In this document: piece after piece, positions 3,799-23,009 of the stretch
Numbering within the stretch: the stretch's first letter is position 1
Layout of the letters: each line of letters opens with the position of its first letter
Source of the DNA: Dehalococcoidia bacterium
Lineage (GTDB): Bacteria > Chloroflexota > Dehalococcoidia > UBA2979
DNA: 64,000 nucleotides
Direction of reading: 5' to 3'
Assembly: GCA_964291495.2 (NCBI GenBank)
Contig: OZ219871.1
Location: forward strand, 224,001 to 288,000
The notes under the pieces: model-generated
What the model was told of the DNA's origin: nothing
The model's input: the letters and a program-made list of their open reading frames with translations, nothing else
Database searches by the model: none
Made by a program: the position numbers and the translations under genes

Positions 3799-4473
3799 CT
3801 ACGCCCCCGCCGGCGGCAGTCGCGCTCCGAGTGCGGCGAGATCCAACTCGCGCAGCGAGGCGACCACGAGGTGGGCGGCGGGTTGCGGCGGCGCGGCCGT
3901 CGAGGCCTGCCGCGACTGCACGACGAACATGCCGGCGGACGCTGCCGACCGCACGCCGGCGGGTGAGTCCTCGATCGCCACGCAGGCGGCGGGCGCGACG
4001 CCGAGGCGCTCCGCGGCGAGCAGGAAGATGTCGGGCTCGGGCTTGGCGCGCTCGATGTCGTCACCGCTGACGGCGATGTCGAAGGCGTCCGCCAGGCCGC
4101 AGCCCTCGAGGGTGGCGTGCACCCACTCGGCGATCGATTGCGAGGCGAGGCCGACGGCCCAGCCCGCCGCGCGCGCGGCGGCAATCAACTCGCTCGCGCC
4201 GTCGAGCGGCTCGATGTCGCCACTCCGCAGCTCGGCGGTGACGAGCGCGGCGTAGCGCCCTATCAGTTCCTCGACCGAGTCTTCGAGGCCGTAGTGCGCG
4301 CGCACCCACTCCATGAACGGCGCGATCGCAAGGCCGGTGAAACGCGCGTAGTCGTCCTCGCTGAGCGGCCGAGGGGCAACCAACCGTCGCGCGGCGCGGT
4401 GGTGGACGGGCTCGGAGTCGACGAGGACGCCGTCGAGGTCGAAGACGAGCGCGCGCGCCGCGGTCGCGCTCAC
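3799..4473 (-). CDS. HAD-family phosphatase (beta-phosphoglucomutase-like)
   Basis: C-terminal part of track ORF 3799..6009. GTG at 4473 overlaps the upstream stop. Motifs FDLDGVLVDS, KPEPDIF, IEDSPAG. Confidence 0.9.
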   Translation of the reverse strand: MSATAARALVFDLDGVLVDSEPVHHRAARRLVAPRPLSEDDYARFTGLAIAPFMEWVRAHYGLEDSVEELIGRYAALVTAELRSGDIEPLDGASELIAAARAAGWAVGLASQSIAEWVHATLEGCGLADAFDIAVSGDDIERAKPEPDIFLLAAERLGVAPAACVAIEDSPAGVRSAASAGMFVVQSRQASTAAPPQPAAHLVVASLRELDLAALGARLPPAGA

Positions 4474-4952
4474 GCCGATCCGGCGCCGTCGCCGGGCTGC
4501 GAGGCGGGCCCCGCGCCCTCGAGCAGCTGCTTGAGCCGCCACACGGCGTCGCGCAGCGCCTGGCGGCGGTGCTGGCGCTGCACGAGCAGGTCGAGCAGCC
4601 AGCCGGCGAACCCGCCCGCCGGCGTGTAGATCGCCTCGACGAGGAGGTGGACGTCGTCCGCACCCTCGGCGGTGAGCACCCAGCTCAGCGTGTCGAAGGC
4701 GCTGCGGTCGCCATCGGCGGCGCGGAAGAGCAGCAGGCGATGCGGTTCGCGCTCGGCGGCCTCGAGCCGGACGCGCTCCGACCGCAGCGGCAGCGTGAGC
4801 ACGCCCTCGAGGCGGGCGGGAGGGCCGGACGGCGCCTCGACGTCGCGGAAGCTGCGGGGCAGCCACTCTCCGTAGAGCTCGGTCGCCTCGAGGCGTTCGA
4901 ACGTCTCGCTGGCGCTGGCGTGGATGTGCACGTCCTCGCGGATGCGTCCCAC
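4470..4952 (-). CDS. SRPBCC/START-fold protein
   Basis: Size and pattern (IREDVHIHAS..TFERL; C-terminal helix RLKQLLE). Operonic with lysS. Confidence 0.65.
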   Translation of the reverse strand: MGRIREDVHIHASASETFERLEATELYGEWLPRSFRDVEAPSGPPARLEGVLTLPLRSERVRLEAAEREPHRLLLFRAADGDRSAFDTLSWVLTAEGADDVHLLVEAIYTPAGGFAGWLLDLLVQRQHRRQALRDAVWRLKQLLEGAGPASQPGDGAGSA

Positions 4953-4958
4953 GCGCCG

Positions 4959-6437
4959 CTAGCCGCCCGACTCGCGCATCGCCGGGAAGAGCACGACCTC
5001 GCGGATCGAGTGCTCGCCCGTCACGAGCATGACCAGCCGCTCGATGCCGACGCCGAGGCCGCCCGCAGGCGGCATGCCCTGCTCCAGCGCGCGCACGAAG
5101 TCCTCGTCGGCGACTTCCGCCTCCTCGTCGCCGCCGGCGGCCTTCCGCGCCTGCTCGCGCAACAGCTCGCGCTGCTCCACGGGGTCGTTCTGCTCGGAGT
5201 AGGCGTTGGCGCGCTCGATGCCGAGTGCGAACAGCTCGAAGCGCTCGGCCACGGTGGGGTCGTCGCGCTTGCGCTTGGCCAGCGGCGAGAGCTCCGCCGG
5301 GTAGTCGAAGACAAAGGTCGGGCGCACCAGGCGGGACTCGACGAACGCCGCCATCAGCGCGTCCAGCGCCGTCCCCCACGAGGCGTCCGGATCCACCTCG
5401 ACCCCGCGGTCGAGGGCGAGCGTGCGAACCTGCTTGGCCTCCGGGTGCGCGCGGTAGTCGATGCCGGTGTGCTCGAGCAGCGCCTCGCGGTAGGTGGTGC
5501 GAGCCCACGGCTCGCCGAGGTCGATCGTCTCCTCGCCGTGCCGCACCTCGAGCCCGCCGGTGACCTCGCTCACCACCGAGCGGAACAGCGCCTCGACCAT
5601 GTTCGCGACGTCCTCGTAGTCGGCGTAGGCCTCGTAGGACTCGAGCAGCGTGAACTCGGGGTTGTGGCGGTGCGAGATGCCCTCGTTGCGGAAGACGCGG
5701 CCGATCTCGAAGACCTTGTCGAAGCCGCCGATCACCAGCCGCTTGAGGTGCAGCTCGAGCGAGATGCGCAGCGCGAGGTCGCGGTCGAGGGCGCCGTGAT
5801 GCGTGTAGAACGGCCGCGCCGCCGCGCCGCCCGCCTCCTCCTGCAGGACCGGCGTCTCCACCTCCATGAAGCCGCGCCGCTGGAAGAAGCGGCGCACCGC
5901 CGCGAGCACCTCCGAGCGCGCGCGCGCGATCTCGCGTGATCGCTCGTTCGCCATCAGGTCGAGGTGACGCTGGCGGTAGCGCGTCTCCACGTCTACGAGG
6001 CCGGCCCACTTCTCGGGCGGCGGCCGCAGCGCCTTGGTCAGCACGCGCCAGCGCGTGACGGCAACCGTGACCTCGCCGTGGCGCGTGCGGAAGAGCCGTC
6101 CGCTTGCCTCGACAAAGTCGCCGAGGTCGACCAGCGCCAGGAGCCCGAACTCGTCGCCGAGCACGTTGCGCCGCAGGTGCAGCTGGATGCCGCCCGAGCC
6201 GTCGCGCACGTCGACGAAGGCGGCGCGGCCCATGTCGCGGATCGCCGTGATGCGCCCGGCGACGGTGACCGCGCGGCGGGACTCCTCGAGGCCCTCCCGC
6301 TCACTACGCGCGAAGAGCGCGACGGCCTTCGCGGCCTCGTGGGTACGGGAGGTGCGGGCGGGGTAGGCGTCGCCGAGCGCGATCAGTTGCTCGCGCTTCT
6401 GCCGGCGCAGCTCGATCAGTTCCTGTTCGGACGGCAT
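4959..6437 (-). CDS. lysS: Lysine--tRNA ligase, class II
   Basis: YRQRHLDL, FMEVETP, GGAAARPF, FRNEG, HNPEFT, GLGVGIERL motifs. Confidence 0.98.
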   Translation of the reverse strand: MPSEQELIELRRQKREQLIALGDAYPARTSRTHEAAKAVALFARSEREGLEESRRAVTVAGRITAIRDMGRAAFVDVRDGSGGIQLHLRRNVLGDEFGLLALVDLGDFVEASGRLFRTRHGEVTVAVTRWRVLTKALRPPPEKWAGLVDVETRYRQRHLDLMANERSREIARARSEVLAAVRRFFQRRGFMEVETPVLQEEAGGAAARPFYTHHGALDRDLALRISLELHLKRLVIGGFDKVFEIGRVFRNEGISHRHNPEFTLLESYEAYADYEDVANMVEALFRSVVSEVTGGLEVRHGEETIDLGEPWARTTYREALLEHTGIDYRAHPEAKQVRTLALDRGVEVDPDASWGTALDALMAAFVESRLVRPTFVFDYPAELSPLAKRKRDDPTVAERFELFALGIERANAYSEQNDPVEQRELLREQARKAAGGDEEAEVADEDFVRALEQGMPPAGGLGVGIERLVMLVTGEHSIREVVLFPAMRESGG

Positions 6438-18432: not shown

Positions 18433-18861
18433 ATGGCTACTTCGATCCGGCTCAGGGAGTGTCGCAACGAGGATGTCGACGCCGTGCTCGCGCTCTGGCG
18501 TCGCGCGGAGACTGTTCCACGCCCGACCGACCGTCCGGACGCACTACGGCAGCGGATTCAGCACGACGACGGACTCTTCCTTGTCGCCGTCGACGGCGAT
18601 CGCGTCGTCGGATCGTTGATCGGAAGCTGGGATGGCTGGCGCGCCGGGCACGCGCGACTGGCAGTGGACCCCGAGTACCGCCGCCATGGGATTGCGACCA
18701 GGCTCGTCGCGGAGGTCGAGCGCCGCCAAGTCGTCTTGGGCGCAGAGCGATCCACGATCCGCGTCTTCCACAACGAACCCGGCGCCGTGGCATTCTGGAC
18801 TTCGCTTGGCTACGTCGCTGACTCCGACGAATCGATCTACGTGAAGGGACTCGAACGATGA
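18433..18861 (+). CDS. GNAT-family N-acetyltransferase (YpeA-like)
   Basis: ATG at 18433. WDGWRA, LAVDPEYRRHGIA motif A, N..A..FW..LGY. Confidence 0.88.
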   Translation: MATSIRLRECRNEDVDAVLALWRRAETVPRPTDRPDALRQRIQHDDGLFLVAVDGDRVVGSLIGSWDGWRAGHARLAVDPEYRRHGIATRLVAEVERRQVVLGAERSTIRVFHNEPGAVAFWTSLGYVADSDESIYVKGLER

Positions 18862-19964
18862 CGCGCGACCCGATGCAGACCCGGCTCTGCGACGAGTACG
18901 GCTGCGAGATCCCCCTCGTCGGCTTCGCCCACACCCGCGACGTGGTCGCCGCGGTGACGAACGCCGGTGGCATCGGCATGTACGGCGTGAACGCGCTGAC
19001 GCCCGAGGAGATCCGCAACGACATCCGCTGGATCCGCGAGCGCGTGGGCGACAAGCCGTTCGGCATCGACTTCCTGCTCTCCGCCTCGTACGTCGAGGGC
19101 ACGCCGGAGGAGCTGATGCCGCGCATCCCGCAGGAGCACTGGGACTTCGTCGACGGCGTGATGGCCGAGCACGGCATCCCGGAGCCGAAGACGCCCGGCC
19201 CCTGGGGCGTCAAGCGCGTCGACCTGCTGCGCAAGGCGCGCGCCAAGTTCGACGTGCTGATCGAGGAGCAGATCCCGATCTTTGCCTCCGGCATGGGGAG
19301 CCCCGCCTTCGCGCTGGAGCTGCTGCACGACGCCGGCATCAAGGTCTGGGGCCTGATCGGCCTCGCTCGCCAGGCGGCGCGGGAGCTGGAGCAGGGCCTC
19401 GACCTGATCGTGGCGCAGGGCCAGGACTCCGCCGGGCATACCGGGCGGATGGGCACCTTCTCGCTCGTCCCCGAGGTGGTCGAGCTGGCGCAGGCCTACG
19501 ACAAGCCGGTGCTCGCCGCGGGCGGCGTCACGCACGGCCGCCACATGGCCGCCGCACTCGCCCTCGGGGCGGACGGCGTCTGGACCGGCACGATCTGGCA
19601 GGCCACGCACGAGTCCGACACCTCGATGAAGAAGAAGCAGCGCCTCGTCGAGGGGCGCGGGCAGGACGCCTGGATCTCGACCGCCTACGACGGCAAGCGC
19701 GTGCGCGCGATGCGCTCGAAGTTCCAGGAGATGTGGGAGCGCGAGGACTCCCCCGAGATCCTGCCGATGCCGCTGCAGGGCATGCTCGTCGGCAAGATCG
19801 AGACGGCGATCGAGGACCACCAGCTCGACGACTGGCTGCATGTCACGGCTGGCCAGGGCCTGACCTTCATCGAGGAAGTCAAGCCCGCCCGCCAGGTCGT
19901 CTTCGACCTTGCCGACCAGGCGCGCGACGCCCTCGAGCGGCTCGGCGCCTACGGCGAGGAGTAG
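18858..19964 (+). CDS. Nitronate monooxygenase/FabK-like FMN enzyme, copy 1
   Basis: VAAVTNAGGIG, IVAQGQDSAGHTG, PVLAAGG, ALGADGVWTGT. Confidence 0.9.
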   Translation: MTRDPMQTRLCDEYGCEIPLVGFAHTRDVVAAVTNAGGIGMYGVNALTPEEIRNDIRWIRERVGDKPFGIDFLLSASYVEGTPEELMPRIPQEHWDFVDGVMAEHGIPEPKTPGPWGVKRVDLLRKARAKFDVLIEEQIPIFASGMGSPAFALELLHDAGIKVWGLIGLARQAARELEQGLDLIVAQGQDSAGHTGRMGTFSLVPEVVELAQAYDKPVLAAGGVTHGRHMAAALALGADGVWTGTIWQATHESDTSMKKKQRLVEGRGQDAWISTAYDGKRVRAMRSKFQEMWEREDSPEILPMPLQGMLVGKIETAIEDHQLDDWLHVTAGQGLTFIEEVKPARQVVFDLADQARDALERLGAYGEE

Positions 19965-19979
19965 CGCGCGGCGATCGCG
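19940..19979 (+). repeat. 40-bp direct repeat, left copy (spans the stop codon of the monooxygenase gene)
   Basis: gctcggcgcctacggcgaggagtagcgcgcggcgatcgcg; 39/40 identical to 21924-21963. Confidence 0.95.
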
Positions 19980-21896
19980 CTAGCGGCGCGGCGGGCCGAC
20001 GGCGGAGCCGCCCCAGCAGACGATCTCGCCGTCTTCGGTGAGAGCGCAGGCACGCCCCCGCTCGCCGCGTACCGCCTTGTAGCGACCCGGAGGGGCCGCG
20101 AGCACTTCGGCCTCCCACCAGGGACCCCAACACGCGATGTCGCCGGCCTCGGTGATGCCGCAGGCGTGGTACCAGCCGAGACCCAGCTCCGTGAATCGCG
20201 TCGCGGGGGCTTCCGCGTACGCCGGTAACGAACCCCAGCAAACTGCCACACCGTCAGTGGCCAGGGCGCAGGTACCGGTCAGGCCCGCGCTGATCGATCG
20301 GTAGCGGCCCGACGCCGCGGCTGTCTGTCCGGAGTTGCTGCGGCCCCAACAAACGGCCGCCCCCTGCTCAGTCAGGGCGCAACTGTGGTCCCCTCCGGCG
20401 GCGACTGCCGAATAGTGACCGGCCGGGGCGTCAGACTCGCCCTCGTCGTTTTCGCCCCAGCAGGTCAGCTCCCCGCCAGTGGTCAGGGCGCAGACATGGC
20501 CCCCACCAACGCTCACGGCCTGGAACCGGCCGGGCGGAACGTCCCAGGCACGGAAGACATCGCCCCAGCAGACGATTCCTCCGTCCCCGTTCAGGGCGCA
20601 GGCCTGTCCACCGCCAACATCGATAGCCGTATACGGGCCCATTGTCGGCGCCCCGGCTCCGAGCGGCGTCTTGCCCCAGCAGGTGATCGTCCCCTCGGCG
20701 GTCAGCGCGCAGGCGTCGCGGTCACCGACGTCGAGCGCCACGTAGCGGCCGACGGGCGCATCCCAGGCGGTGTGGCCCCAGCAGATCAGACCCCCGCCCT
20801 CAGCCAGCGCACAGCTGTGAGCTGAGCCGACGGTCACGTCGATGTATCGGCCGGAAACGGGACGGGTGTTGCCGGACCTGTCGCGGCCCCAGCAGACGGC
20901 TTCCCCTTCGACGGTGAGGGCGCAGCTGTGCTGCGACCCTGCGCTCACCGCCATGAACGGCGCATACGACCGCCACGGCGCAGCGCCGCCCCATTGAGCG
21001 CCCCAGCAGGCGAGGTCGCCGTTCTCGTCGAGGACGCAGGCGTGGTTGCTGCCCCCCTCCACGGCAACGTAGCTCCCTCCACGTTCGAGGTGTTGGCCGC
21101 GGTTGCGAGACCAGCAAGCCAGACCTCGCTCGTGGGTGATCCCGCAGACCTCGTGACTGGCCACGCTCAGCGCGACATAGCTCCCCGGCAGCGAGTACGG
21201 CGTCCCGTCGGAGGTAGCTACGATGCATGTGATCGTGCCGCCGCTACTGAGCGCGCACCTGCCATACCCACCGGCGCTCACAGCGATGTAGCCGTCATCG
21301 GGCGCGGCGGGCAACGTGTGGGACTCCACGCCGGCGCCGCCCCAGCACACCGCCTCACCTTCGACGGTCAGGGCGCAGTTCGTATCGGCGCCGCTGCTGA
21401 GCGCCGTGTAGCGGCCCGAGGGGACATCGATCTGGCCGTAGTAGTTCTGACCCCAGCAGACGATCTCACCGTCCACGGTCAGCGCGCAGATGTGTGAATA
21501 GCCGGCGCTCGCCGCTACGTAGCGGCCGGGCGCGACACCGTTCGCGGCGTCAGCGGGGAGCGCGCCGGGGCGCCACGTCTCCGTATGAATCGCGTTGTAG
21601 CCGTTGACCGTGAAGGTCACTGTCGCCCCGCCGACGGCCTTGCCCGCGCAGCTACGCCAGCGCAGCTGCAAGAGCCACTCGTAGTTGGCGTTCGCGGTGG
21701 TCGTGGCGCAGATCGTGCCGTCGATCAGCGCGCTGATCTCGTCGCCCGGATTGGCGCGCCCGTAGTACGTGGCCGGAAAGAGCTCGCTCGCCTCGGCGGG
21801 CTGTGCCGTCACGATGATCCCAAGCAATACCGCCGCCAGCGCGACGCTGCCGACTGCCGCACGAGTCGATCGGCTGGCCGGGATCGCCCGCCTCAT
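19980..21896 (-). CDS. Secreted RCC1/BLIP-II repeat beta-propeller protein
   Basis: Signal peptide, a small N-terminal domain, then many ~37-aa repeats of the form Y.A.S.G..H.CALT..G...CWG. Confidence 0.9.
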   Translation of the reverse strand: MRRAIPASRSTRAAVGSVALAAVLLGIIVTAQPAEASELFPATYYGRANPGDEISALIDGTICATTTANANYEWLLQLRWRSCAGKAVGGATVTFTVNGYNAIHTETWRPGALPADAANGVAPGRYVAASAGYSHICALTVDGEIVCWGQNYYGQIDVPSGRYTALSSGADTNCALTVEGEAVCWGGAGVESHTLPAAPDDGYIAVSAGGYGRCALSSGGTITCIVATSDGTPYSLPGSYVALSVASHEVCGITHERGLACWSRNRGQHLERGGSYVAVEGGSNHACVLDENGDLACWGAQWGGAAPWRSYAPFMAVSAGSQHSCALTVEGEAVCWGRDRSGNTRPVSGRYIDVTVGSAHSCALAEGGGLICWGHTAWDAPVGRYVALDVGDRDACALTAEGTITCWGKTPLGAGAPTMGPYTAIDVGGGQACALNGDGGIVCWGDVFRAWDVPPGRFQAVSVGGGHVCALTTGGELTCWGENDEGESDAPAGHYSAVAAGGDHSCALTEQGAAVCWGRSNSGQTAAASGRYRSISAGLTGTCALATDGVAVCWGSLPAYAEAPATRFTELGLGWYHACGITEAGDIACWGPWWEAEVLAAPPGRYKAVRGERGRACALTEDGEIVCWGGSAVGPPRR

Positions 21897-21923
21897 ACGG
21901 CCAGTGTACGCAGCCGAGCATCC

Positions 21924-21963
21924 GCTCGGCGCCTACGGCGAGGAGTAGCGCGCAGCGATCGCG
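21924..21963 (+). repeat. 40-bp direct repeat, right copy
   Basis: gctcggcgcctacggcgaggagtagcgcgcagcgatcgcg; one mismatch to 19940-19979. Confidence 0.95.
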
Positions 21964-21985
21964 GGCAACGTAGCGAGCAACGAGA

Positions 21986-22007
21986 GAGCCGCCCTCGCGG
22001 GCGGCTC
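21986..22007. terminator. Hairpin, probable bidirectional terminator
   Basis: GAGCCGCCC-tcgc-GGGCGGCTC downstream of the crotonase stop. Confidence 0.65.
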
Positions 22008-22035
22008 CGTCGTGTCTGCGGCCGAGGGAACGGCG

Positions 22036-22806
22036 TTAGCGGCCCTTCCACTCCGGCTGGCGCTTCTCGGCGAAGGCGCGCGGACCCTCGGAGATGTCCT
22101 CGCTGGTCTCGACGCGGTGCAGCAGGTGCTTGGCCATGATCATCGCCTCGTCGTGCGGCAGCACGTGGGTGCGGTAGAGGATCTCCTTGAGGCAGCGCAC
22201 GGAGAGCGGCGCGTTCTCGGTCAGGATGTTGGCCCAGCGGTAGGCCTCGTCCAGCACGTCCTCCTTCGGGACGATCGAGTTGATGAAGCCCATCTCCTTG
22301 GCGCGCTCCGGCGTGATGTACTCGCCCATCAGCACCACCTCGAGGGCGTTGCCGAGGCCGATGATGCGCGGCAGGTCCGCCACCCAGTGCGGCATCAGCC
22401 CGCGCTTCACCTCGCGAATGCCGAGGATGGCGTCGTCCGCGCAGATCCGGAAGTCGGAGCGCTGCGCCATCATCCAGCCGCCGGCCAGGCAGTAGCCGTG
22501 GATCGCGGCGATCACCGGCTTCCAGACGTTCTCCGGGTTGCTGTTGCCGGTGACGCGCACCTTGCGCCAGTCGATGCCCTGGGCGTTCATCTCCGCGCGC
22601 TCCTTGAGGTCCATCCCCGCGGAGAAGGCGCGGCTGTCCGGGTGCGCACTGAGGATCGCGACCCAGATGTCGTCGTCCTCCTCGACCTCACGCCAGGCGT
22701 CGGCGAGCGCCTGGTTGAGCTCGAAGTTGAGCGCGTTCATGACCTCGGGACGGTTCATCTCGAGGTGTGCGATGTGGTTCTCGACCTTGAAGTTCAGGAC
22801 CGACAC
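22036..22806 (-). CDS. Enoyl-CoA hydratase/crotonase family protein
   Basis: GTG at 22806. NRPEVMNALN, AFSAGMDL, KPVIAAIHGYCLAGG, EGPRAFAEKRQPEWKG. Confidence 0.92.
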   Translation of the reverse strand: MSVLNFKVENHIAHLEMNRPEVMNALNFELNQALADAWREVEEDDDIWVAILSAHPDSRAFSAGMDLKERAEMNAQGIDWRKVRVTGNSNPENVWKPVIAAIHGYCLAGGWMMAQRSDFRICADDAILGIREVKRGLMPHWVADLPRIIGLGNALEVVLMGEYITPERAKEMGFINSIVPKEDVLDEAYRWANILTENAPLSVRCLKEILYRTHVLPHDEAMIMAKHLLHRVETSEDISEGPRAFAEKRQPEWKGR

Positions 22807-23009
22807 GGTTACCCCCTGGTTGCTGCGTTCACATCCTTTGCTGAGCGCGGGTGAAGGTACGTCAACCCCCCGCCGAATGTCCACGCGCGCCGCCTGGACG
22901 CAGTCGGCGCCGCATCGCGTGCCGCCGCTTCCCGGCGCGCCCGATCTCCTCGAACCCCGCCGCGCGAGCGCGCGGGCGGGTGCCCATAACGGCGCGCCCC
23001 GGGCGCGTT

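Follow-up and report, generated by a model that had tools for sequence, protein, structure and literature searches.

Integrase-borne islands and their integrase-less derivatives lie at the 3' ends of tRNA or protein genes, with the gene end copied on both sides of the insert and the gene itself left intact. Illegitimate or homology-assisted insertion is usually seen only in laboratory transformation experiments. Here we describe a gene for an RCC1-repeat protein that stands between two copies of a resident gene's 3' end in a 64,000-nucleotide window of a Dehalococcoidia bacterium (UBA2979; assembly GCA_964291495.2, contig OZ219871.1, positions 224,001 to 288,000). A similar layout has been engineered as the Dup-In, a marker-held tandem duplication that lambda Red recombineering produces from a linear fragment whose homologies are swapped and that disappears when its copies recombine (PMC5389514). 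According to the description of Dup-Ins in that source, recombination between the copies restores the site, the construct can be moved between strains via its flanks, and short duplications are stable, those with 100- to 210-bp copies being lost no more often than background (PMC5389514). A survey of variable segments between conserved genes reports that most of them are unexplained by mobile elements and that 10 to 18% are flanked by direct repeats, with 66 to 94% of the repeats shorter than 30 bp and read there as deletion substrates (PMC2884548). In the case presented here, we conclude that the RCC1 gene is probably the cargo of an old duplication-insertion allele, which occupies a variable slot between two conserved convergent genes and would have been established by general recombination.

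The resident gene is an intact ORF (open reading frame) of the nitronate monooxygenase family (NMO; positions 18858 to 19964 of the window, plus strand; Pfam PF03060, 1.3e-43). Its last 22 coding bases, the TAG stop codon (19962 to 19964), and 15 further bases form the left copy of a direct repeat (19940 to 19979, plus strand), which was detected by self-comparison and by a genome pattern search. The right copy (21924 to 21963, plus strand) is a nonfunctional NMO pseudo-3' end that continues into the native spacer. The initial annotation had described a 40-bp repeat with one mismatch, and this is what we find: the copies lie 1984 bp apart, start to start, and are identical at 39 of 40 positions, the single difference (G at 19970, A at 21954) being located after the stop codon. 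When up to 3 mismatches are allowed, the 40-mer occurs twice in the whole 3.08-Mb assembly (designated G000; 93.7% complete, GC 71%) and a reversed-pattern control occurs 0 times, which puts the repeat far beyond chance. The edges of the repeat in G000 are sharp, with 40 and 44 matches of 80 in the flanks, which is the background level, and no longer hidden homology was found past the repeat edges at the 8 G000 loci examined.

Between the copies there are, as had also been noted, only the RCC1 ORF (19980 to 21896, minus strand; 638 amino acids; RCC1_2, 6.8e-66), whose stop codon touches the left copy, and a 27-bp spacer upstream of its ATG (21897 to 21923, minus strand), which has a homologous spacer in the relative G004. 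The cargo protein has about 11 to 12 repeat units, spaced 102 to 114 nt apart in the gene, and its N terminus appears signal peptide-like. It is encoded by the sole RCC1_2 gene of the genome: all 9 RCC1_2 matches fall inside it, and a tblastn search of G000 for a second RCC1 gene returned only the gene itself. A -10 box had been proposed for the cargo. The string TACACT is present on the minus strand (21908 to 21903), 6 nt before the ATG, and could possibly act as the -10 box of a leaderless transcript; however, a consensus scan for sigma-70-type promoters found 0, so that the box stays a reading only.

Beyond the right copy, the native NMO-ECH spacer contains a GC-rich hairpin (21986 to 22007), which is conserved in all relatives, and then reaches the convergent resident gene, an enoyl coenzyme A (enoyl-CoA) hydratase/isomerase identified by its ORF and by Pfam (ECH; 22036 to 22884, minus strand). 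The hairpin, which folds with -38.3 kcal/mol over 77 nt (z -3.57, 0 of 200 shuffles as good), is likely a terminator for the ECH gene. Its exact 23-nt core (21987 to 22009) is also found in 58 metagenome loci, 0 of them with NMO or ECH, and looks like a generic GC-rich, terminator-like palindrome. Convergent NMO/ECH pairs are also present as paralogous modules (about 75% identity) elsewhere in G000 (C6:494050-495982) and in relatives.

A contig build of the public run X20, possibly the source sample, spans 19928 to 22009 with 0 differences, and contigs from two other studies (X1 and X21) contain the cassette and both junctions at about 97 to 98% identity. Since separate contig builds carry both junctions, the structure is not a mis-join of this assembly.

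We searched 41 related genomes at the DNA level, fetched the corresponding loci, and mapped their parts. Orthologues of both NMO and ECH are present at 91 to 97% identity in ten species of the genus; taken singly, NMO shows 93 to 96% in 10 relatives and ECH 92 to 97%. The spacer between the two genes is contiguous in nine species, including G000. It contains an RCC1 gene in 4 of these, an unrelated 863-amino-acid gene in 2, and is empty in 3 (G001, G010, and G009), so the presence/absence variation that had been foreseen for this site is real among relatives. Besides G000 (spacer of 2071 bp), RCC1 alleles are found in G004 (2081 bp; 639 amino acids), in G012 (2189 bp; an allele with an in-frame stop, giving 364 plus 281 amino acids), and in G017 (3253 bp; 636 amino acids). 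The G017 spacer additionally has an IS5-like transposase ORF between the hairpin and ECH (4320 to 5294 of the locus sequence; DDE_Tnp_1, 2.6e-28, and DUF772). The 863-amino-acid gene of G011 and G014 (spacers of 2923 and 3054 bp) is on the minus strand and encodes a lipoprotein-like N terminus, and a Pfam search with its product gave no family above cutoff. In both of these genomes, the left spacer copy ends exactly at the would-be ECH stop, and the stop codon of the cargo sits there. In G005 the contig breaks at the hairpin, but two contig ends overlap and the site looks empty; the first ~50 bases of G005 contig C121 are off-locus and have the look of a sequencing adapter remnant, which may explain the break. 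G002 has a contig break within the locus. No RCC1 orthologue was found elsewhere in the genomes G001, G002, G005, G009, and G010.

The empty sites are of two kinds. G001 and G010 (spacers of 210 and 113 bp, respectively) have one repeat copy followed by the same downstream bases as the right copy of G000, which is the order predicted by the initial annotation for removal of the insert together with one repeat. A contig from run X2 (labelled a sponge metagenome), which represents the empty site of a relative about 94% identical, fits the same precise single-copy form. In contrast, the 90-bp spacer of G009 retains the left junction and 13 nt of the RCC1 3' end (17 of 18 positions identical to G004). 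This remnant indicates that G009 lost the gene by an imprecise deletion that removed the right repeat as well, and excision by recombination between the repeats, as had been suggested, does not account for this empty site.

The contents of the slot are far more divergent than its borders. RCC1 alleles have 60 to 66% amino acid identity, versus 93 to 99% for the flanks, and the dS of the RCC1 alleles is 0.62 to 0.82, versus 0.08 to 0.20 for the flanks. This excess fits a history in which old alleles would have been exchanged between species through the conserved flanks. One allele is a mosaic: in G012, an RCC1 body (88% to G004) is joined to the right junction of the 863-amino-acid allele (95.6% to G011). 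Diverged or unrelated contents between the same conserved flanks are what characterizes a replacement-type variable slot. In an rpoB tree of 18 genomes of the genus, the eleven genomes with the locus split into three groups, of which one consists of G004, G014, G011, G017, and G012 (support, 100/100) and another of G000, G009, G005, G010, and G001 (87/93), with G009 pairing weakly with G000 (74/64); G002 is unplaced. A 330-amino-acid stretch of RpoB matches beta chains of RNA polymerases with known structures. RCC1 alleles with the same right junction occur in both of these groups, and the two carriers of the 863-amino-acid gene, G011 and G014, are not sisters. The genus's other sub-clade does not provide an outgroup, as its seven genomes lack a close orthologue of this locus.

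The 40-bp repeat of G000 is the short form of a longer duplication in other species. The within-genome repeat is 121 bp at 86.8% identity in G011, 125 bp at 89.6% in G014, and 70 bp at 87.1% in G012; the repeats of G004 (41 bp at 85.4%) and G017 (a remnant of 26 bp) are shorter. Starting at NMO position 1052, the repeat of G011 and G014 takes in the stop codon and the hairpin of the spacer, whereas that of G012 ends 14 nt after the stop. The right copy in each of these three genomes also includes a 45- to 96-bp piece that matches NMO from position 749 and is fused to position 1052. Based on these pseudo-NMO pieces, the original duplication was at least about 450 bp long, from NMO position 749 to the end of the spacer, and the 40-mer would therefore be what trimming has left of a target duplication of about this size or larger. 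A short form of the right junction, consisting of the ATG, 27 to 35 bp, and NMO from about position 1083, is common to G000 and G004, with the 26-bp remnant in G017. Because this junction is shared by G000, G004, and G017, there was no new insertion in G000.

If the duplication is old, the near identity of the two G000 copies requires an explanation, and the substitutions in them provide one. Both G000 copies have GAGGAG before the stop, whereas 12 other comparable copies from eight genomes have GGCGAG, GACGAG, or GGCGCG (the right copy of G017, which is not alignable there, is excluded). In addition, the right copy of G000 carries GATCGCG, the form typical of left copies, at the place of CTCGCG or CTCGCC in the remaining right copies. 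It is not credible that identical private changes arose independently in both copies, which indicates that the copies were homogenized in this lineage, and judging from these substitutions the homogenization was probably recent and would have occurred by gene conversion or an equivalent copy-to-copy exchange. Recent homogenization would best explain why the 39/40 repeat looks young and precise. The idea of a young, precise cassette is not supported: diverged RCC1 alleles share the right junction across sub-clades, and sister species carry a longer, decayed duplication.

The same architecture is present elsewhere in G000. A genome self-comparison yielded 69 direct-repeat pairs (at least 28 bp, at least 90% identical, 300 to 12000 bp apart), from which we selected by inspection the loci at which one copy covers a resident gene's stop codon and its partner lies past an insert; some of the other pairs are dispersed palindromic elements or paralogues. 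At least 5 other loci have 36- to 142-bp duplications of a resident gene's 3' end around a foreign-looking insert, and all five have single-copy empty sites in relatives. A cargo gene is called at three of the five, and all three cargoes encode secreted proteins. At C6:802120/803730, a 36-bp repeat of a CoA-transferase gene end surrounds the gene for a 497-amino-acid trypsin-like secreted peptidase with a PPC domain. This site is single-copy and empty in 9 of 10 relatives matching the flanks (8 aligned), with only the right flank matched in G014, and a spacer-like but diverged stretch adjoins the functional copy. At C6:780680/782143, a 63-bp repeat of a thiolase-like gene end surrounds the gene for a 392-amino-acid lipoprotein (insert GC, 0.61), and the site is empty in 5 of 5 relatives searched. 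Each G000 copy here has one private change, both copies are native-looking, and we found no excess of private substitutions that would mark a donor-derived tract in the resident gene beside the insert. The lipoprotein (C6:780916-782091) belongs to a large family of secreted multi-module proteins, which is present in 18 of 18 other genomes of the genus and in 3 of 80 other genomes of the order, with a best non-self identity of 50%.

The third locus with a called cargo gene, C6:519644/521746, has an 86-bp repeat of an ammonium transporter gene end and a 650-amino-acid secreted protein. It is empty in six relatives; G004, G011, and G014 have a diverged cargo without a recognizable second copy, and a comparison limited to the right side shows a diverged cargo also in G003 and, by a 70-bp match, in G013. 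The two copies in G000 differ at 5 sites. At 4 of the 5 the remnant is like the nearest relative, G009, and at 3 of the 5 the functional copy has alleles seen in G001 and G010. Upstream of this locus (C6:516693-518750), G000 and relatives have a run of about 730-bp units, 75 to 78% alike and spaced about 530 bp. No cargo gene was called at the remaining two loci. C5:363650/364369 (51-bp repeat, peptidase M50 gene) has a 668-bp insert that is also present in G001, G010, and G009 and is absent from G005 and G004, and C5:879783/880440 (142-bp repeat, CoA-transferase gene) has a 515-bp insert that is present in G009 and G005, with an empty site in G001. A further repeat, of 52 bp, lies at C1:76248 in G000.

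Repeats at different loci have no common sequence, each being built from its own resident gene end. In the inspected cases the repeat ends 0 to 15 nt past the resident stop codon, even where the spacer is 90 nt or more, and the insert boundaries lie very close to the cargo ORF, a young insert being no exception. The GC content of five short inserts (listed loci and C1, RCC1 excluded) is 0.61 to 0.72, compared with 0.70 for the RCC1 insert and 0.71 for the genome; for the inserts at the recurrent loci the range is 0.61 to 0.67. We considered whether the inserts are template-switch copies of sequences elsewhere in the genome and rejected this, as six short inserts (RCC1 included) are single-copy except for local or weak partial matches at C1:76300-77164. 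The TAG stop codon was likewise rejected as a target: 6 of 9 resident genes end in TAG, but TAG is the commonest stop genome-wide (896 of 1691 rough gene calls, or 53%, versus 41% TGA and 6% TAA), and finding TAG five or more times in 8 or 9 genes has a P of 0.43 to 0.57. The suggestion that other RCC1 or accessory genes would have long flanking duplications was borne out at other secreted-protein loci; it was not for the gene from 63209 onward in the window (688 amino acids), whose two ends share no repeat of at least 18 nt, and the genome offers no further RCC1 gene to compare.

Three further observations concern direct repeats in this genome. An 8.8-kb block (C6:331372-340150) lies inside a 175-bp direct repeat (C6:331197-340325) that is 98.9% identical and consists of the 3' end of a DinB-family gene; the block encodes peptide ABC transporter parts, a luciferase-like monooxygenase, a methyltransferase, and a glyoxalase-like protein, with no recombinase. 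A gene for a 730-amino-acid leucine-rich-repeat (LRR) protein lies within a 74-bp direct repeat pair (94.6%) at C8:57830-62353. A dispersed palindromic intergenic element (core CCCTCTCCC ... GGGAGAGGG) is located downstream of genes at C5:158634/159017, C5:1639784/1640672, and C6:441025/441358.

We looked for enzymes that might have mobilized these inserts. G000 has 3 Phage_integrase matches (two strong and one weaker, the latter at C5:842207) and 2 Resolvase-family matches, which are in open frames of 646 and 670 amino acids (large serine recombinases). None of these five recombinase genes (C1:48473, C6:190383, C5:842207, C8:18048, and C5:849152) is at any repeat-flanked locus, and the RCC1 insert is one ORF with no recombinase or transposase inside. 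In the 93.7% complete assembly there are 0 RVT_1 matches for reverse transcriptase and 0 DDE_Tnp_1 matches for transposase. Ku is present. Two classes of element can be set aside from these results. An integron cassette needs an attC site (an imperfect palindrome) after its ORF, an integron integrase, and attI; the repeat here is the coding end of the neighboring gene and not a palindrome, and there is a single cassette with no adjacent integrase. An insertion sequence or transposon was rejected because there is no transposase, the inserts have no common termini, and the duplications vary from 36 to 175 bp.

The evidence from relatives documents, to the extent that sequence comparison can, a target duplication that came with an insertion and kept the resident gene whole, followed by decay, trimming, homogenization, and imprecise loss. 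The following course of events would account for it. Foreign DNA would have been joined to the chromosome by two joints in swapped order, so that the stretch between the joints came to lie on both sides of the insert. This stretch would originally have begun near NMO codon 250 and taken in the whole intergenic spacer, a length of some 450 bp or more, with the left copy keeping NMO intact and the right copy left as a dead remnant. The joints would have come from general recombination and repair and not from a cassette-specific integrase, transposase, or reverse transcriptase. Two routes might have led to them: a homologous crossover within the resident gene combined with an illegitimate joint in its 3' end, or a pair of illegitimate joints that bridge sister chromosomes, as has been proposed for engineered Dup-Ins (PMC5389514). 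The comparison with relatives shows what followed: the dead copy decayed and was trimmed to 40 bp in the G000 allele, and species came to hold different RCC1 alleles, another secreted-protein gene, or nothing, the losses occurring by deletion that was imprecise at least once (G009). Both copies in G000 would recently have been homogenized by gene conversion or an equivalent exchange, and the same kind of event would have taken place at several other gene 3' ends of this genome.

Several points weigh against this account. The formation step itself we only infer, and no donor or intermediate arrangement was found for any locus: a search of genome contigs for the context of an RCC1 donor gave only 23 to 29% relatives in unrelated organisms, none of 99 genomes of the order encodes a relative of the C6:780680 cargo at more than 50% identity, and the 863-amino-acid gene has only 39 to 48% paralogues elsewhere, with none in G000 at a stricter first look. 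The evidence on which joints were homologous is mixed. Both copies at C6:780680 look native, whereas the copies at C6:519644 have different alleles that segregate among relatives, and with the evidence split in this way we rank neither of the two routes to the joints with confidence. The near identity of the G000 copies could equally reflect recent excision and reintegration within the species, and repeat shuffling or weak codon bias could also inflate the dS of RCC1. Finally, repeats are not significantly enriched over called stop codons (7 observed versus 4.9 +/- 2.1 in 1000 random shifts, maximum 12), in a test of 83 pairs (24 to 400 bp, at least 90% identical, separated by 300 to 12000 bp) that relied on rough gene calls for 67% of the genome. 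The recurrence of the architecture consequently rests on locus-by-locus comparison with relatives and not on statistics.

Of the other explanations that we weighed against an old duplication-insertion allele, the strongest is a recombinase-free mobile cassette, in which a circle of the cargo and one repeat, formed when the repeats recombine, re-integrates at empty sites in other cells by a single crossover of the Campbell type and the G000 repeat marks a recent integration. The 39/40 identity, the G000-private substitutions in both copies, and the emptiness of the closest relatives (G001, G010, and G005-like) are all consistent with this, as are the different segregating alleles of the C6:519644 copies, which look as if one had arrived with the cargo, the diverged spacer-like stretch beside the functional copy at C6:802120, and the patchy occurrence of cargo types on the rpoB tree (the 863-amino-acid gene in the nonsisters G011 and G014). 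Nevertheless, the right junction is old, being common to G004 and G017, and was not made anew in G000, and 40 bp is near the lower limit of RecA-type recombination, which is quoted as about 30 bp for Escherichia coli (PMC2884548). The contigs of four runs contain neither a circle nor a same-strain empty joint from 19979 to 21964, which is weak evidence, since contigs drop rare variants. Re-integration of a circle also leaves the origin of the first repeat unexplained, and while a circle may serve for spreading, we regard this as an unlikely history for the G000 repeat. It is less likely again that the RCC1 gene is ancestral, so that there was no insertion, the repeat came from local tandem duplication plus deletions, and the empty sites are losses. 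The occurrence of alleles in both sub-clades, the deletion scar in G009, and the closeness of the insert's GC content to that of the genome would suit this explanation. Against it, the seven genomes of the other sub-clade offer no close orthologue by which polarity at the root could be set, and it does not account for an unrelated gene that sits in this slot with a flanking duplication of the same type or for the clean, lineage-private insertions of the same architecture at other loci.

The initial annotation had favored an att-like or a retro/replication-mediated route. Direct repeats of a gene's 3' end are left behind by integrases acting on gene ends, and if the 40-mer were the attL/attR core of a small cassette moved in trans by a recombinase encoded elsewhere, one would expect what is seen in G001 and G010 (a single copy with the downstream bases of the G000 right copy), in G011 and G014 (another cargo in the same slot), and in the genome at large, which encodes 3 tyrosine and 2 large serine recombinases. 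We nonetheless consider att-type integration very unlikely. The insert and its surroundings are without a recombinase; there is no shared core, each repeat coming from its own resident gene and the 40-mer being found at a single locus only; and the repeat length varies from 36 to 175 bp across loci and from 41 to 125 bp between species at this one. Moreover, the right copy in three species extends into a pseudogene fragment upstream of any plausible core, and the loss of RCC1 in G009 was imprecise. A reverse-transcription route, or a diversity-generating retroelement with its template and variable repeats at a gene 3' end, can be dismissed almost entirely. A 3'-end repeat with a downstream copy does resemble the variable/template layout, and the mismatched A is in the noncoding copy, but the stop codon precedes this mismatch, the differences in other repeat pairs are not confined to adenines and include G/C positions, what is inserted is a normal ORF that has a start region of its own, and the genome, as described above, has 0 RVT_1 matches.

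Taken together, we conclude that the RCC1 locus is a real structural allele of ordinary mechanism with an instructive history. If an old duplication-insertion allele is the right reading, accessory secreted-protein genes can enter and leave a compact genome without mobile-element machinery, and duplication of the resident gene end both keeps the gene intact and leaves homology for later loss, conversion, or exchange. With the same architecture at no fewer than five other loci, some of them young, the genus would offer a natural system for the study of illegitimate or homology-assisted insertion. The cargoes are repeat and surface proteins, whose turnover might matter for interaction with a host. 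In genome scans, it should be borne in mind that a near-perfect long direct repeat need not mean a young or site-specific event, because the copies can be homogenized long after insertion. A bolder proposal, which we offer tentatively and think doubtful, is that the single secreted-protein genes of the genus (RCC1, trypsin-like peptidase, lipoproteins, and possibly LRR) form a recombinase-free cassette pool, each with a resident 3'-end copy (36 to 175 bp) for entry and exit by ordinary recombination. If this were true, species could reshuffle their surface repertoires among one another with no help from mobile-element enzymes, any conserved gene end being a potential private site of attachment.

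A full-text literature search returned no account of natural 36- to 175-bp gene-end duplications around single secreted-protein genes, although such reports may exist outside its coverage. The RCC1 locus can be compared point by point with the systems introduced above. In common with integrase-borne islands, it has a copy of the gene's 3' end on both sides and an intact resident gene; unlike them, it lacks both an integrase and a shared core, each locus has a repeat of its own, the inserts are single genes of 0.5 to 2 kb, and one loss was imprecise. Like the surveyed variable segments, it has alternative contents between the same conserved flanks of related genomes, but the repeats here are 36 to 175 bp long, come from resident 3' ends, and arose with the insertion at two loci (C6:802120 and C6:780680), which differs from the segments as that survey characterizes them. 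Homology-facilitated illegitimate recombination also combines one homologous anchor with one illegitimate joint and uses no mobile-element enzyme (PMC2884548). An illegitimate joint inside the 3' end of the anchor gene would be expected to leave a displaced gene-end remnant, and a duplicated gene end is not stated in the description of the process given in PMC2884548. As described for the Dup-In, the insert is at the join point of a native direct duplication with one intact and one truncated gene copy. Single-copy, contiguous empty sites are found at the RCC1 locus, C6:802120, and C6:780680, and NMO is intact by way of the left copy, with the right remnant starting from position 1083 here and, interrupted by an internal gap, from position 749 in G011, G012, and G014. 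In contrast with the Dup-In, which as described is engineered with designed 40-nt homologies and phage recombinases, the duplication at the RCC1 locus is natural and old, its second copy has decayed, and its cargo is a secreted-protein gene.

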